64,000 bases of DNA from a virus (IMGVR_UViG_3300028423_000861:64001-128000), one strand, 5' to 3'; counted from the first letter of the stretch, positions 18,116 to 54,750 are shown. The notes: generated by a model not told the origin, from the sequence alone. Numbers and translations: made by a program.

Positions 18116-18162
18116 AAATAAGCCTTTTAACTGTATACTTATTTATGTTAATAAGATGGAAA

Positions 18163-19040
18163 TAGTGAGATTACCTAAATTTCCGCGGTTGCCTTTGGAC
18201 CGTACCGTAAACCTTGCGAGTCTACGTTAATCCGTTATCCACTAAGCGCCTTTCAGCTGACTTAGTATCAACCAGTGCTGCCTAGTTTAAAGTGGTGGCA
18301 TTTCCACTATCGTTACACGCTACTCGTCCTTTGATCTTCCGCCTGCCTTGCGAGCAGTTCAGAGTCGCTAAACCCTTACGTCTTCTCTCCGAACAAACAC
18401 TTCCGCCTTGCGAGCTTCCATGCACGACATTCACCGTAGTGTGTCGTATTAAGCACCTTTAACGTGCAACTGAGGCAGTCTTTGCGTTTTTGCTATAATG
18501 CATCTGCAGGATTTGAACCCACACATTCAGTTCCTAAAGACTGACGCTCTACCATTGAGCTAAGTTGCTAACCTACCAAGACGTGCTGCCTCTTGTTGCT
18601 TCGCATCCTTTTGGGAAACGAAATACAACACGCCTAAATGCCTTTCTCCTTGCGGGATACTAAACGTCTTTTCAAGTATCCAGCTACCTCACTAGTCGGT
18701 AACTCTCAACTTTAAAGATAACAAGTTGCCCTCCTGCGCGAACAGTCGGACTATTTGTTTACCCGTTAACATTCTGTCTTCGCTAGATTGGAGTGCATAG
18801 CTTTGGCTCCCACCAAATTGTAACCTCGCCGGTTGGCCCTGGTTACTATCCTTTCGGGCATTTGCTCTAGCTTAGGACTTACCTCGCTCTTCACAAGGGG
18901 TGCGCTACGGCTTATAGGAATACATCCGTCTGCCACCTAGTCCGGGCTTGCGTAAATGGACCATTGCTGGCGCAAGTGCGTAGGCTTCCTTGCTTTGGCA
19001 GTGTTACCACTGTTATCCTCCTGGACGTCACGCCGCCCAT
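18163..19040 (-). ncRNA. GOLLD-like giant structured RNA
   Basis: ~880 nt without a long ORF; repeated CTCGCAAGG loops; GTGTTGTATTTCG..CCAAAAGG..GAAGCAAC, AAAGGTGCTTAA and 3' GTAATCTCA, recognised from memory of GOLLD; 5' end uncertain. Confidence 0.75.
18500..18568 (-). ncRNA. degenerate tRNA-like domain embedded in the giant RNA
   Basis: TAGCTCAATGGTAGAGC D-arm, TCAGT/ACTGA stem with 8-nt loop, GGTTCAAATCC, no CCA. Confidence 0.7.
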
Positions 19041-45154: not shown

Positions 45155-45229
45155 TGGCTGCGCAGGTAGGATTCGAACCTACGACCAAGTGATTAACAGT
45201 CACCTGCTCTGCCACTGAGCTACTGCGCA
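45155..45229 (-). tRNA. tRNA-Asn(GUU)
   Basis: canonical cloverleaf. Confidence 0.93.
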
Positions 45230-45269
45230 ATAATTTCTTGCGACTTACGGGTTCTTCACCCTGCGCTAG

Positions 45270-45765
45270 TATTCTGATCACAACTGCTATAAAGTGCTCT
45301 GCCTGGTTTCGAACCTTCGGCCAGCATCAGGCCTACAACCTACCGCACTGCTGTATGGGAAGCAGGAGATTTATAGCATGTGAAATCAGAATAGCTTTTT
45401 AGTTAATGTATAAGATATCATCGCCGTTTTGTCTCTGTACAGGCGTAATCCTGCACAGAGGAACTTAGATATCTTATACAATAACCAACTCTACTTTCAG
45501 CTGCACTATTTGTCAAAGGCGGTCTCGAACCGTCCCGACAACAGTGACAATCTGCCATCGGTGCTCCATATGCAATCCTATAGTGCATGTGAAAGTAAAC
45601 TCTACTTTCATCTGCTGATACATGATGGAGTCGAACCATCTCGGCGGGCCGTCGCCCTATTCGCTACACCGCGTATAAAGAAGGAATCGAACCTTCGCAC
45701 AGTCACCAAGACCCTAGTCCGGAATCGAACCGGATTACCTTACCACGTGCATCAGCATATGAAAA
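45270..45765 (-). ncRNA. three tandem long-stem RNAs with T-loop hairpins (45270-45393, 45493-45596, 45604-45765)
   Basis: each closed by a long stem with TTCAYATGC/GCAGNTG; 1, 1 and 3 GGTTCGA hairpins inside. Confidence 0.65.
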
Positions 45766-46013
45766 CAGAATCAGTCTTCACTACCATTCGGTCTTCTGCG
45801 GGCATTTCAGCCGACATTCTCTCGTGCTAGAAGGAAGTCCTGGGCAACTGGGCCCTCTAGCAGTTGAAAGGAGCACTCCCGGGGTGGTTAGTCCCATTAT
45901 GGCGAGCTGATATGTCGCTACTTGGCGACGCTCCTGTGTTTCGTAACAACCAACTGTGTCGCTTGCTACATGTTCTAAAGTAAGACATCTTGGTTTAAAT
46001 GTCAACTACTTTT

Positions 46014-46181
46014 TTAAAAAATTTCTTCTTTTTTTGAAACTTTATAAAACAGTAGTTTGGTATCCCCGACTGGATTCGAACCAGCACCCTCCAGAGTGAA
46101 AATCTGGCGTCCAAGACCATTTAGACCGCGGGGACATCTTTCTTCGTCTTCTTCGTCTTCTTCTTCGTGTTCGTCTTCCAT
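46014..46181 (-). CDS. Glu(GAA)-rich leader ORF reading through tRNA-Glu(UUC)
   Basis: AGGAG 7 nt before ATG; MEDEHEEEDEEDEER...; 55 codons. Confidence 0.6.
   Translation of the reverse strand: MEDEHEEEDEEDEERCPRGLNGLGRQIFTLEGAGSNPVGDTKLLFYKVSKKEEIF
46058..46135 (-). tRNA. tRNA-Glu(UUC)
   Basis: CCAGA-TTTTCAC-TCTGG. Confidence 0.92.
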
Positions 46182-46198
46182 TACATTGCTCCTAGACT

Positions 46199-46232
46199 AA
46201 AAAACCCTCCTAAGCTTTTTGCTTGGAGGGTT
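46199..46232 (-). terminator. intrinsic terminator of putative attenuator
   Basis: AACCCTCC-AAGC-AAAAA-GCTT-A-GGAGGG-TTTTTT. Confidence 0.85.
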
Positions 46233-46261
46233 GCTTGAGTATACTATCTGATCTAGTTCAG

Positions 46262-46411
46262 CTAGTCTCTTGCACCCTCCCCAATAGGCTCAAAGCGATC
46301 TCCATCGAGGCGTGACTGCATAATGCCATAATTCAACGCCCAGCTTTGTTCGCTGGTATTCAGACCTTTGACGGCCTTGTTGAATATGATATGTGACATT
46401 GTTGTTTGCAT
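46262..46411 (-). CDS. 49-aa attenuator leader peptide
   Basis: ATG..TAG between promoter (TTGACG-17-TATGTT, 46471-46499) and terminator; last codons GGAGGGTGC complementary to the terminator 5' arm. Confidence 0.7.
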   Translation of the reverse strand: MQTTMSHIIFNKAVKGLNTSEQSWALNYGIMQSRLDGDRFEPIGEGARD

Positions 46412-46605
46412 TACTATCTCTGTTTGATGTAGCAGCTTTTGCTGTTACGTTTATTTATCTCTTGTTAATCAACATACGCTAAAAAATCTAACTCGTCAAC
46501 AACTTTTTTTGTTTTTTTTGACGGCAACATGTCGTCGCCGCCATGTTCTTCAATATAGTGCTTGGTGACACAAAGGTCAAGAACTTTTTTAAAATAATTT
46601 TTGCT

Positions 46606-47757
46606 TCACATATAATTGCTGTTAATCATTTTACGAACACGCTCGGAATCAATGGGTTGTGTCTCGCACAGGCCATCAATGATCCGCACACACGATGTTT
46701 TCCACATAGTGTTGTAATCTACTCCCTGCCGCCGCCAGTCATGATAACCTTCTTTCCTAGCAGCTTCCATCGCTAGATCGTTTTGTTTGATAAATTCTTG
46801 GAGTGGGTACAGAACACCGTTTTGATCATAGTATCTTGCTGAGTCGGGACCCACAAGAAAATATTTGTCTTTGCCGATCTTGGGTAGTGATTCCCCCCTT
46901 GCAATGATTTTTTTCACTTGCATCTTGCTTTTACGGAAATCAATTTCATTATCAACATTAACATATTTTGCAAATCTCTCTTCAAGACTCACTTGTTTGT
47001 AGATATGCATTGGTCCTACGTTTCGGCCTTCGAGATGATCCGGAACAATCTTATAAAATTCACGTTCAACATGTTTCTCAAAATCTTCAGGATTATCCGA
47101 GAAAAAACTAAGGAAACCATTACGCGGAACGCTTATTGTGCCGCGTTCGGCCGTTAGTTTTTCGTCAATTACACGCTCACCAATTGGAATGATATATTCA
47201 ACATTATAATATCCAATATACAACCAATCTCCCCACGTATTGGAAACCACATCACCAGGTTGATGATCTAGTGTGGTTTTTTGCTTTTTCTTGTCATGTT
47301 TTTTGACTTCACTCTTGGCTTTTTCAAATGCTTTATCTGCTGAACGAATCAAACGGTTATTCGCACCATCTCGAATCCAGACCAATTCGTCTTTGATTTT
47401 TCCGTGATTGATTTCACAGTTAAGAATTAGATCAACAAGATTGGGAATATAAATTTCCAGTTCAAACCCACGAGGATCAACTACTCTTACAACTTTATTA
47501 TCAGTTACATAACGACCAGACCACCCAACAATTTCAAACCCGGTCATAGGCTTGTTATCATAAACCTTTCCTTCTCGTCCAGCCCAACGACGAGCCGTAG
47601 CTTTTCTTTTCTTAGCACCGCTATCGTCACCATCTGGGACAGCAAATGCTAGAGGTTTTCCACTACAGGTATCTGATTTACCGGTAGTGATATAATATTT
47701 GTCAAAATATTTAGGATTCGAGAGCTTCATCACCAGACTCCAGGTCTTTGTTGCCAT
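46606..47757 (-). CDS. hypothetical phage protein
   Basis: long ORF, DPRGFELEI motif. Confidence 0.7.
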   Translation of the reverse strand: MATKTWSLVMKLSNPKYFDKYYITTGKSDTCSGKPLAFAVPDGDDSGAKKRKATARRWAGREGKVYDNKPMTGFEIVGWSGRYVTDNKVVRVVDPRGFELEIYIPNLVDLILNCEINHGKIKDELVWIRDGANNRLIRSADKAFEKAKSEVKKHDKKKQKTTLDHQPGDVVSNTWGDWLYIGYYNVEYIIPIGERVIDEKLTAERGTISVPRNGFLSFFSDNPEDFEKHVEREFYKIVPDHLEGRNVGPMHIYKQVSLEERFAKYVNVDNEIDFRKSKMQVKKIIARGESLPKIGKDKYFLVGPDSARYYDQNGVLYPLQEFIKQNDLAMEAARKEGYHDWRRQGVDYNTMWKTSCVRIIDGLCETQPIDSERVRKMINSNYM

Positions 47758-48062: not shown

Positions 48063-48148
48063 TGGAGTTGCGGGCGAGAGTCGAACTCGCTAGGTGTTAG
48101 CCTGCCTTGGATTTGCAATCCAGCCCCTTACCGTCCGGGCCCCGCAAC
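48063..48148 (-). tRNA. tRNA-Cys(GCA), long V-arm
   Basis: loop TTGCAAA, U73. Confidence 0.85.
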
Positions 48149-48184
48149 ATCTGCCAGGAGTTAAAACTCCTGGCATTTGGGTGT

Positions 48185-48301
48185 TTAACCGCCCCAACCT
48201 TCAATGGCGCTTTCGCGACATGAACAGTCAGGACCACATTTGCATGATTCACCACATGGGCAAACATCAAGCAAACTGTCTCTATAACCTTCTCTAAACA
48301 T
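48185..48301 (-). CDS. 38-aa Cys-rich (metallothionein-like or leader) peptide upstream of tRNA-Cys
   Basis: AGGAG RBS, CPCGESCKCGPDCSC, hairpin 48152-48175 before the tRNA. Confidence 0.7.
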   Translation of the reverse strand: MFREGYRDSLLDVCPCGESCKCGPDCSCRESAIEGWGG

Positions 48302-49103
48302 GTTAGTCTCCTGTTGCTGGCTATTTATCAGCAACATCATTATGATGCATTTTGATATGATGCATTTTGATAAAGAATTTGTCAACTGTTATTTGTTATA
48401 CTCGGTAAGTTCTTGATCACCAAATGCTAGCTTGAACATAGTGGCATGTTCAGGGTTGCTAAATCCCAAGGTAAAATCATTACCGAACTTGCTGAAAATT
48501 TGATATTCATGGCTACTGGTATTATCTTGTAACCATTCAATGGTCTTTGCAAAATTAAGTTCATTCAACAAAAACAAATCTCTAGGAACGCGAGTCCAGA
48601 GTATTTGTTTTGCAATGCGACGCGGGTTGAGTGAACTAATATTTTTAAGCCCCAAGGCATGTTTTTCGATTTTAGTTGCTGTCATGTATCCAAGAGACTG
48701 CGACTTACATTTAACTTCAATAACATATTTGGATAAACATTTGTTCGTCGGAGACAAAGGACTCGGTTTAAAAACGACCTTGATACTAGGAACACTTTCC
48801 GAAAAATCAAATGGATTATCAGTCAGTCCATACATATCACAATACATTTTTTCGATAAACCGTGATGTTTTTTTATAATACATTTTGAGTGGTGGATAAC
48901 CACTACCAAAAATAGAATCTAGGCGTTTTGTAGGAATCCGGATTTCATAAGACATGTTATTATCAGATGTTACTCTTTTTCTTGGATTTCGCTTTTTCGG
49001 AAAATTTTTCTTTTTTATACTAGAGGACCTTGTAAAAAGATCCTCTAGTTGTTTTTCACGCTCACGTGCTCTTTTGAGAGCGTTGTGAACCCACTGTTTT
49101 CGA

Positions 49104-54138: not shown

Positions 54139-54425
54139 TATGGAGGGATTCTGTTTCTAGGCTCCCTCCGGGCCCAGCTGATTATGCCGCTAGGGCAACC
54201 TCAGCAGGTGCTGCGTTTGTGTTTGCAGTTATTAAGATGCGACTATTTCGCGTTCGCCTCCGACTAACTCCACTTCCCTACAACGTGCATCGATCCTATG
54301 TCGCCCCCATCAAAACATTACTTGCTGTTACACTATGGCCATTAACCTATTTGGTCACAAGTAACGTTATGGTGGAGGCGTCCGGTACTGCCCCGGAGTC
54401 TACTACGCTTTCAAGTTGCTTCCTC
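54139..54425 (-). ncRNA. ssrA: circularly permuted two-piece tmRNA; tag ANTNAAPAEVALAA (54182-54226)
   Basis: acceptor piece ends CGCCTCCACCA at 54370; hairpin spacer; coding piece starts GGGGGCGA at 54308. Confidence 0.92.
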
Positions 54426-54750
54426 GTTAGCATGTTTATTTATACAGAAATCCCAGGGCATTGTCAACTGATTTGCAAACGGAAGTAGACAAGAACCACA
54501 GTCATAATCATCTTGTACAAGTCTTTCAAGTAATTCCTCTTCAGTTGCATAATCTTTTGTGCTAATGCCCCTGCATTGACATATTATCATTTATTGAATC
54601 CATTCAACTTCAACGTTAGTGCTGCCACCACCACGCAAAAATCTCTCACTGCTTGATCCGGTCGCATAAAATTCAGGTTTATAAGGAAGTCTAGAAATAA
54701 CGTTGGCACCCATGCCATTAATTCTCCGTTATTGTTGTATTTATATGGTT

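Follow-up and report, generated by a model that had tools for sequence, protein, structure and literature searches.

A probable family of leader-peptide attenuators at the tRNA genes of uncultured T4-like jumbo phages

Arrays of transfer RNA (tRNA) genes are common in phages and their regulation is largely obscure. What decides whether RNA polymerase enters such an array is the question raised by the minus strand of IMGVR_UViG_3300028423_000861:64001-128000, a stretch of 64,000 nucleotides (nt) of viral DNA that we call the window. Here a promoter is followed by an open reading frame (ORF) of 49 codons and a TAG stop (46262–46411; an ORF call backed by homologs), an intrinsic terminator and tRNA-Glu, the first gene of an array, all placed and oriented as an earlier note on this DNA had described. 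That note took the locus for a ribosome-coupled attenuator whose leader samples codons as a general sensor of tRNA shortage. The attenuator architecture is backed by covariation, constraint at the RNA level, near-isoenergetic alternative forms, a ribosome-masking model and the tRNA context, whereas codon sampling did not hold. We read the element as a leader-peptide (ribosome-mediated) transcription attenuator at phage tRNA genes, an interpretation in which our confidence, drawn from sequence comparison and modelling, somewhat outweighs our doubt. If correct, it would mean that these phages match the transcription of their tRNA genes to the performance of translation.

The RNA around the end of the leader ORF is predicted to adopt two folds that share one strand. 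In the first, GGAGGGU (46280–46274) pairs with ACCCUCC (46231–46225) to form P1, the base of a rod whose inner helices P2 and P3 enclose the stop codon. This antiterminator hairpin (46225–46280) is the minimum free energy (MFE) structure of its segment, at −23.8 kcal/mol against −14.3 kcal/mol for interior shuffles (z = −3.5). It corresponds to the pairing between the last codons and the 5′ arm of the terminator that had been proposed from the window alone, and it recurs with covariation in ~45 homologous modules. In the second fold the CCCUCC is engaged by another GGAGGG within the terminator CCCUCCAAGC-AAAAA-GCUU-A-GGAGGG, which is followed by U6 (46199–46232; −17.6 kcal/mol, z = −4.8) and is not listed by a simple terminator scan of the window. 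Stop codon and terminator are separated by a spacer of 31 nt.

The relatives of this locus came from a scan of public collections with the terminator hairpin only, which matched 8 viral, 41 metagenomic and 5 genome-collection stretches and yielded 38 distinct copies of a module. The module consists of a GATAAATAA motif, a short ORF, GGAGGG 10 or 13 nt before the stop, a variable hairpin and a CCCUCC...GGAGGG-U6 terminator. All matches with enough upstream sequence carry it, bar five (L028 and L040 end too early upstream to be judged). The five are four genome-collection contigs, three of them metagenome-assembled bins, and the metagenomic stretch L046, which looks identical to L073, one of these four. 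The four bacterial contigs have an equal hairpin without the upstream GGAGGG, the ORF and the GATAAATAA motif, and therefore act as negative controls. Seven further modules were obtained independently of the hairpin pattern, five through a peptide profile and two through a covariance model; six of the seven share the CCCUCC/GGAGGG lower stem, and class A homologs reached by the peptide alone have the same terminator. In total there are ~45 distinct copies, in uncultured T4-like jumbo phages; their contigs come from saline and marine sites. Their leaders fall into three classes, A (45–53 amino acids (aa), MQ..QHITKL..SWALNY..LGGDRFEPT.EGARD), to which the window belongs, B (29–31 aa, M.LSLAISLAWTPGQSNPGVDLCLEGARD) and C (23–31 aa, M..MFKHMFIKSIRECCEYRFGVSEGYGG).

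At the protein level, an exhaustive HMMER search with the ORF gave one full-length homolog, P0026 (51 aa, 53% identity), whose 1.2-kb contig keeps the order of promoter, GATAAATAA, ORF, terminator, Glu-rich mini-ORF, tRNA-Glu and next promoter. Leader-peptide homologs amount to 22 proteins found by the peptide profile and 37 unique ORFs in modules. Neither the 383-aa neighbour nor the 49-aa ORF led to related loci in single-protein searches, and a word-index protein search with the latter returned only the ORF itself. The class A peptide alignment held no stretch conserved enough for a locus scan, and a scan with the class B alignment recovered only contigs already in the set. A match to a repeat protein, P0025, was of low identity to a repeated segment of a long protein and was taken as spurious.

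The viral record to which the window belongs is 142 kb long and an estimated ~60% complete. One relative, of 330 kb and 93% complete, carries the gene of a T4-type major capsid protein, Gp23 (G001:C1:141476-142453), and both of its two modules stand in front of tRNA sub-clusters. Against 50,697 phage records, blastn with the region or with a class B module found no real match and tblastn with the neighbour gene found remote partial matches only; the clade is without a close cultured relative in this collection. A class B module followed by eight tRNAs lies on L071 (PWGS01000159.1, 2.8 kb), binned in a Desulfonatronospira metagenome-assembled genome; the contig looks like phage DNA that was probably mis-binned and so gives no reliable host clue.

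Is the antiterminator a family property? P1 is part of the MFE structure in 37 of the 38 modules, and the interior-shuffle z has a mean of −2.8, falling below −2 in 30/38. When 5′ and 3′ halves were exchanged among family members, the chimeras folded at −16.6 kcal/mol, compared with −20.7 kcal/mol for the native combinations. Covariation was tested in a model-guided alignment of 39 modules fitted to the structure, in which paired cells reach 89% versus 43–56% with slid partners. Changes on both sides were found for all four pairs of P2 and all six of P3, so that the look for covariation in homologous loci suggested in the earlier note was positive in 10 of 10 pairs. The covariation score is 0.336, a value attained by none of 500 shuffled alignments (0.135); slid ones give 0.071 at most.

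The invariant 5′ strand of P1 lies within coding sequence, and its codon choice is telling. GGAGGG stands exactly 10 or 13 nt before the stop in 34 of 38 modules. Of 34 unique ORFs, 33 have G as the third base of the codon preceding GAG, over nine different amino acids (L, S, R, K, M, Q, G, W, V); where this codon encodes Ser it is TCG every time (7/7), versus 7% of Ser codons in the long ORFs of the phage, and GAG itself is used in 33/34 cases at the P1 arm versus a background of 24%. In L021, L034, L045 and L004 the Glu-Gly dipeptide is lost, and either a complementary arm is retained or P2 is extended beside a shortened P1. Complementarity of the 5′ GGAGGG to the terminator arm is seen in ~44 of 45 modules, and by these codon statistics the element is constrained at the RNA level.

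This constraint bears on a simpler account of the locus, namely a small phage gene of the usual kind that ends in a terminator of its own, in which the P1-P2-P3 rod would be an element of the 3′ untranslated region (UTR) with no effect on read-through. The rod might then act in mRNA stability, in processing (for example as an RNase III-type site that splits the mRNA from tRNA precursors) or in translation termination of the gene itself. The covarying P2 and P3 are compatible with both conformers, which counts in favour of such a gene. On the other hand, it would leave unexplained why the 5′ GGAGGG stays complementary even where the C-terminal peptide has changed, and why the stop codon lies at a fixed distance within the 5′ strand. 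Taking these points together with those given below on peptide, energetics and promoters, we consider the small gene a rather unlikely explanation.

The intrinsic terminator is conserved in all modules and always has U6–7 behind the hairpin. Its upper stem varies (AAGC/GCUU, AAAGC/GCUUU, AGUA/UACU) and its lower stem does not, being identical in all class A homologs that were obtained independently of the terminator pattern. The variants seen elsewhere are GCCUCC/GGAGGC in the second module of L014, where P1 is down to 5 base pairs (bp), and AGAGGG in L061. A fixed lower and a variable upper stem are as expected of a strand with two alternative partners, and the invariance would be compatible, too, with a requirement for this particular sequence. 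GGAGG is a Shine–Dalgarno (SD) sequence and CCUCC the corresponding anti-SD.

The latter resemblance opens the way to a mainly translational switch, in which the 3′ GGAGGG would serve as the SD of the next ORF and be masked by the anti-SD mimic CCCUCC, the upstream GGAGGG competing for this mimic and unmasking the SD as set by ribosomes at the leader end. An ATG does follow the 3′ GGAGGG at 7–9 nt in 13 of 38 modules and opens a longer ORF in 11 of the 13; in L011 and L051 this ORF runs in frame into a Glu-rich ORF, and the invariant CCUCC/GGAGG under a covarying upper stem looks as if the sequence itself mattered. About two thirds of the modules, however, have no start codon at SD distance. 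The window is among them, with no ATG 5–11 nt after the 3′ GGAGGG and a next ORF that has its own AGGAG, and a hairpin that never lacks its U tract is a full intrinsic terminator. As the principal function we therefore hold a translational switch to be improbable. It could act together with attenuation rather than replace it: where the 3′ arm doubles as SD, as in the 13 modules, read-through transcripts in the antiterminator form would also expose the SD.

How might a ribosome on the leader choose between the two forms of an attenuator? The distance from stop codon to terminator is 25–33 nt across the family. In E. coli, terminators >27 nt away are no longer disturbed by a ribosome sitting on the stop codon (PMC4824070), and a spacing at or beyond this limit argues against a direct block of the terminator of the pyrBI type. 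With either P1 or the terminator stem enforced, the energy of the terminator form minus that of the antiterminator form, E(T) − E(AT), is +1.3 ± 2.4 kcal/mol over the family. Folding both conformers, as the earlier note had advised, thus shows them to be near-isoenergetic, a family-wide balance that speaks against the small gene with an inert rod.

We then treated the ribosome as a 30-nt unpaired stretch moved along the whole leader, in a model that is thermodynamic only. For the window's leader, the terminator is favoured with no ribosome (E(T) − E(AT) = −4.5 kcal/mol), the upstream CCUCGAUGG pairing with the GGAGGG region. The terminator also prevails with the A site at codons 1–29 (−2.4 to −6.1 kcal/mol), the antiterminator takes over at codons 30–39 (+0.4 to +2.4 kcal/mol), and with a ribosome in the last ten codons only the terminator can form, an energy difference not being applicable. 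The element CCUCGAUGG (46302–46310), identified from folds, would be a segment 1 acting as anti-antiterminator; it is paired with 46270–46283 in the 335-nt fold and likewise in leader-only folds of most class A homologs. Similar profiles are given by L003, L013 and L051. In two of the class B modules modelled, L014 and L022, the antiterminator wins, by up to 10 kcal/mol, with a ribosome in the first two thirds of the ORF. Since differences between homologs are within the error of the model, the trp-type profile of termination, read-through and termination predicted for the window's leader is supportive, not decisive.

On this basis the attenuator would work as follows. Host RNA polymerase would start at the sigma70-type promoter, and probably also at a late-type ATAAATA box, and transcribe the short, weakly initiated leader ORF, after which the RNA would have the choice between the antiterminator rod, with the GGAGGG 10 nt before the stop on CCCUCC, and the terminator, with the same CCCUCC on the second GGAGGG and U6 behind it. 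A ribosome within the last ~ten codons would cover the first GGAGGG, so that the terminator forms and transcription stops. A ribosome lagging or stalled ~11–20 codons before the stop would leave GGAGGG free and remove the competing segment 1, allowing the antiterminator to form and the polymerase to read into a Glu-rich mini-ORF, the first product of read-through, and tRNA-Glu, or in relatives into other tRNA genes or an ORF. Slow translation elongation would in this way result in more transcription of tRNA genes. A link between ribosome position and termination, like the physiological signal, is a prediction of the model; with a leader devoid of regulatory codons, sensing of general elongation speed appears the most natural reading.

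A bolder version of this mechanism takes the GGAGGG/CCCUCC/GGAGGG triple at face value. When a ribosome terminates on the leader, the first GGAGGG lies exactly one Shine–Dalgarno spacing (7 or 10 nt) upstream of the codon in its P site, and the triple might be a ribosome-competition switch in which the anti-SD of the ribosome rivals the CCCUCC mimic for the first GGAGGG, with the conserved nascent peptide tuning the dwell time. The phage would in this manner gauge translational capacity, as upon loss of tRNAs to host anticodon nucleases, and turn on its tRNA clusters. We regard this extension as doubtful.

The leader ORF itself is probably translated. Its reading frame is preserved in the 37 unique homologous ORFs, and the median ratio of nonsynonymous to synonymous substitution rates (dN/dS) is 0.47, 0.60 and 0.53 for the leader peptides; for the leader ORF it is 0.47, with values below 1 in 96% of pairs. 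These are signs of purifying selection on the peptide as a protein, as one would expect of a small gene in its own right, and part of the conservation is that of RNA structure inside the ORF. The features common to the three classes are mostly of the RNA: the GATAAATAA box, a weak purine-rich ribosomal binding site (RBS) and the position of GGAGGG. The peptide belongs to no Pfam or PHROG family and finds nothing in the ESM Atlas.

The codon-sampling proposal held that the leader had been selected for maximal codon variety, so that the lack of any tRNA would stall a ribosome. The counts on which it was built are correct: 37 distinct codons and 19 amino acids, with all Ile and Gly codons and both codons of Lys, Asn, Gln, Glu, Asp and Phe. 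It is also true that 37 of 49 places the leader in the top 0.2% of 49-codon windows in the long ORFs of the phage (mean 29.3), and that the modelled stall window at codons 30–39 contains 8 different codons. Given the peptide, however, the codon variety is nothing out of the ordinary (P = 0.03 with genome synonymous usage, 0.12 with uniform synonyms). The excess over the long ORFs arises from varied amino acids and unbiased third positions (third-position GC content (GC3) of 0.51 vs 0.35). Over the 37 homologous ORFs, moreover, the mean excess above the uniform-synonym expectation is 0.05 codons, codon-poor homologs exist (18/30 and 24/43 distinct) and leaders of only 23–31 codons bear the identical switch. 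Codon sampling as a selected feature was rejected on these statistics, the short homologs and the purifying selection on the peptide, and we consider it very improbable.

Programmed frameshifting of the dnaX/prfB kind, which would use an SD-like site, a spacer and a hairpin, was likewise discarded, there being no slippery heptamer before the stop codon. The 9-mer GGAGGGUGC of the leader P1 arm recurs inside tRNA-Glu (46084–46092, minus strand); it is absent from the tRNA-Glu of L007, so the recurrence is probably a coincidence.

Several observations weigh against an attenuator and account for our restraint. P1 is invariant, so that its pairing is not demonstrable through covariation, and its conservation could equally serve pairing with the anti-SD of the ribosome. 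The alignment used for P2 and P3 was fitted to the structure, which inflates the pair counts somewhat, a weakness from which the alignment-free shuffle and chimera tests are exempt. Pairing between segment 1 and the GGAGGG region has weak or no covariation support: RNAalifold found no conserved helix in the class A segment 1:2 region, and the hairpin inside the class B ORF is paired to 75%, versus at most 41% for slid partners, with few compensatory changes. In the masking model L012, L019, L038 and L010 favour the terminator at every ribosome position. The leaders tested have no regulatory codon run, no enriched amino acid or codon and no signal of codon diversity, which suits an ordinary gene as well, and their peptides are conserved within three classes, a conservation that a pure leader does not need. 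Read-through would add little behind a strong promoter, such as follows the terminator in many loci, unless this promoter is shut off late in infection. Finally, how tightly transcription and translation are coupled would depend on the host.

All window genes and all 43 tRNAs called by ARAGORN are on the minus strand, which from 46620 downwards begins with the end of a gene of 383 aa. The sigma70-type promoter TTGACG-17-TATGTT (46471–46499; a scan match of 9/12), preceded by an A-tract, has its counterpart at equal distance in class A homologs as AAAAAAGTTGTTGACA-17-T(A/G)T(T/A)GT. Downstream of it lies the GATAAATAA motif (46451–46459) at a distance that is fixed in 35 of 38 modules, with 1–3 tandem copies in class B. 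It contains ATAAATA, similar to the T4-type late promoter consensus TATAAATA. In the genome of the phage ATAAATA occurs 47 times on the coding strand versus 4 times on the opposite one, with 28 of the 47 within 80 nt upstream of a long ORF; strand bias and placement fit a T4-type late promoter, and the box may well work as one.

Next comes a 5′-UTR hairpin read from the sequence, GUAACAGC-AAAA-GCUGCUAC (46427–46449), at whose position class A homologs also have a hairpin, with a conserved GUAAC/GUUAC base and a variable top. The earlier note had remarked on the weak RBS AGAGA, which is indeed present as an SD-like sequence 5 nt before the ATG (46417–46421). The family keeps a weak RBS, AAGAGA or of the GGAA type, while a strong 4-mer SD is found in 72 of 162 long ORFs of the genome.

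Downstream of the terminator, a tRNA gene on the same strand is found within 1 kb in 35 of the 36 loci with enough sequence. In the window an AGGAG and a Glu-rich mini-ORF (MEDEHEEEDEEDEE...; 46014–46193, read from the sequence) run through tRNA-Glu(UUC) (46058–46135; ARAGORN, and 55 bits with the Rfam tRNA model), which comes first among the 43 tRNAs. A promoter scan detected no promoter-like site between terminator and tRNA-Glu in the window. The same arrangement of terminator, SD, Glu-rich mini-ORF and tRNA-Glu without a recognisable promoter is shared by at least nine other class A loci, and a tRNA-Glu left promoterless behind a terminator is hard to reconcile with a self-contained small gene. 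A strong promoter of the TTGACA-17-TATAAC type directly after the terminator, present in the remaining class A loci, which are about half of that class, and in the majority of class B loci, is in contrast in line with such a gene.

The second promoter-like site to which the earlier note had drawn attention, TTGACA-17-TACTTT (46005–45977), is also present, as read from the sequence and below the threshold of the promoter scan. It recurs unchanged in L007 and almost unchanged in L002, L004 and L062, and probably serves the remainder of the array. A resemblance to ArfA of the ORF that follows the L019 module was considered and dropped, this ORF having no Pfam match.

The Glu-rich mini-ORF comprises 13–17 codons (GAA/GAG, with His and Asp), is preceded by an SD and leads straight into tRNA-Glu after a class A terminator. 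It occurs in at least 10 loci despite nucleotide divergence (the window, L007, L011, L013, L016, L030, L051, L056, L060 and L061), and in several of them starts at an ATG 7 nt past the GGAGGG of the terminator. The ~270-nt block after tRNA-Glu (window ~45790–46057, minus strand; L007:480–750) is ~97% identical between the two phages, while the flanking ORF and tRNA are only 60–75% identical. It includes the TTGACA-17-TACTTT site and one compensatory pair change (GUCGC/GCGAC to GCCGC/GCGGC), has no Rfam match, and may represent either a structured RNA or an element that the phages exchanged recently.

A second related unit is found at 48063–48385 on the minus strand, where TTGACA-17-CATCAT, GATAAATA and an SD precede a Cys-rich ORF of 38 aa whose C-terminal EGWGG resembles the ends of the leader-family peptides; a perfect 11-bp hairpin without a U tract and a tRNA-Cys-like sequence uncalled by ARAGORN follow. 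The Cys-containing class C leaders of L008, L021, L038, L053 and L068 are followed by a conserved GAAAUGCGGAACGAGACUGCG...AUGGGCG and usually by tRNA-Cys. Elsewhere on the minus strand the window contains a GOLLD RNA (18162–18636, 182 bits), which encloses a tRNA-like gene called with a 4-base anticodon, and a permuted alpha-type transfer-messenger RNA (54139–54488, 106 bits).

We thus propose a probable new family of phage-borne leader-peptide attenuators, a cis-regulatory RNA of ~85 nt with ~45 members that is not in Rfam. Our literature search found nothing on attenuators at phage tRNA genes; if the interpretation is correct, no leader-peptide attenuator of a phage, or of tRNA genes, would as far as we found have been reported before this one. 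Its signal would be the general speed of translation, creating a feedback loop from translational stress to phage tRNA expression. It would also bear on the current debate, a theme of PMC10264068, whether phage tRNAs serve codon compensation or counter-defence. The invariant SD/anti-SD-like arms offer a simple experimental handle.

The module most resembles the attenuators of amino-acid operons (E. coli trp, his, leu, thr, pheA and ilv). It shares with them a short leader ORF, an antiterminator and a terminator with a common strand, a stop codon placed so that a ribosome at the ORF end masks the 5′ strand of the antiterminator, a candidate upstream competitor in segment 1 and the modelled terminate/read-through/terminate profile. 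It differs in having no run of cognate regulatory codons, in being phage-borne with tRNA genes rather than biosynthetic enzymes downstream, and in its invariant SD/anti-SD-like triple and conserved peptide.

The leaders of pyrBI and pyrE likewise respond to how far the leading ribosome trails RNA polymerase and not to a single amino acid. There, however, the ORF extends into the hairpin or right up to it and the ribosome keeps the terminator from folding, whereas the phage stop codon lies 25–33 nt upstream. With a distant stop and a separate antiterminator, the logic is probably inverted, a close ribosome giving termination. The arrest leaders tnaC, SecM and ErmCL have a conserved peptide as well, and with a ribosome at the stop the invariant W, NY or NPG, D and E-G of the phage peptides would lie in the exit tunnel. 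Part of the phage conservation, in contrast, is explained by RNA structure, and tnaC acts via Rho and not through an intrinsic terminator.

T-box leaders, finally, also respond to a shortage of charged tRNA by raising the transcription of translation-related genes through a choice between antiterminator and terminator, but their sensor is the RNA itself, to which uncharged tRNA binds directly, and they lack a leader ORF. No T-box or other riboswitch or leader model of Rfam matched 45200–46650 at its gathering score or at E ≤ 1, tRNA apart, and two weak plus-strand matches were far below their gathering scores. Ribosome-mediated attenuation is thus the known mechanism to which this family would belong; what is new is its setting in a phage, its tRNA targets and the SD/anti-SD-like triple.

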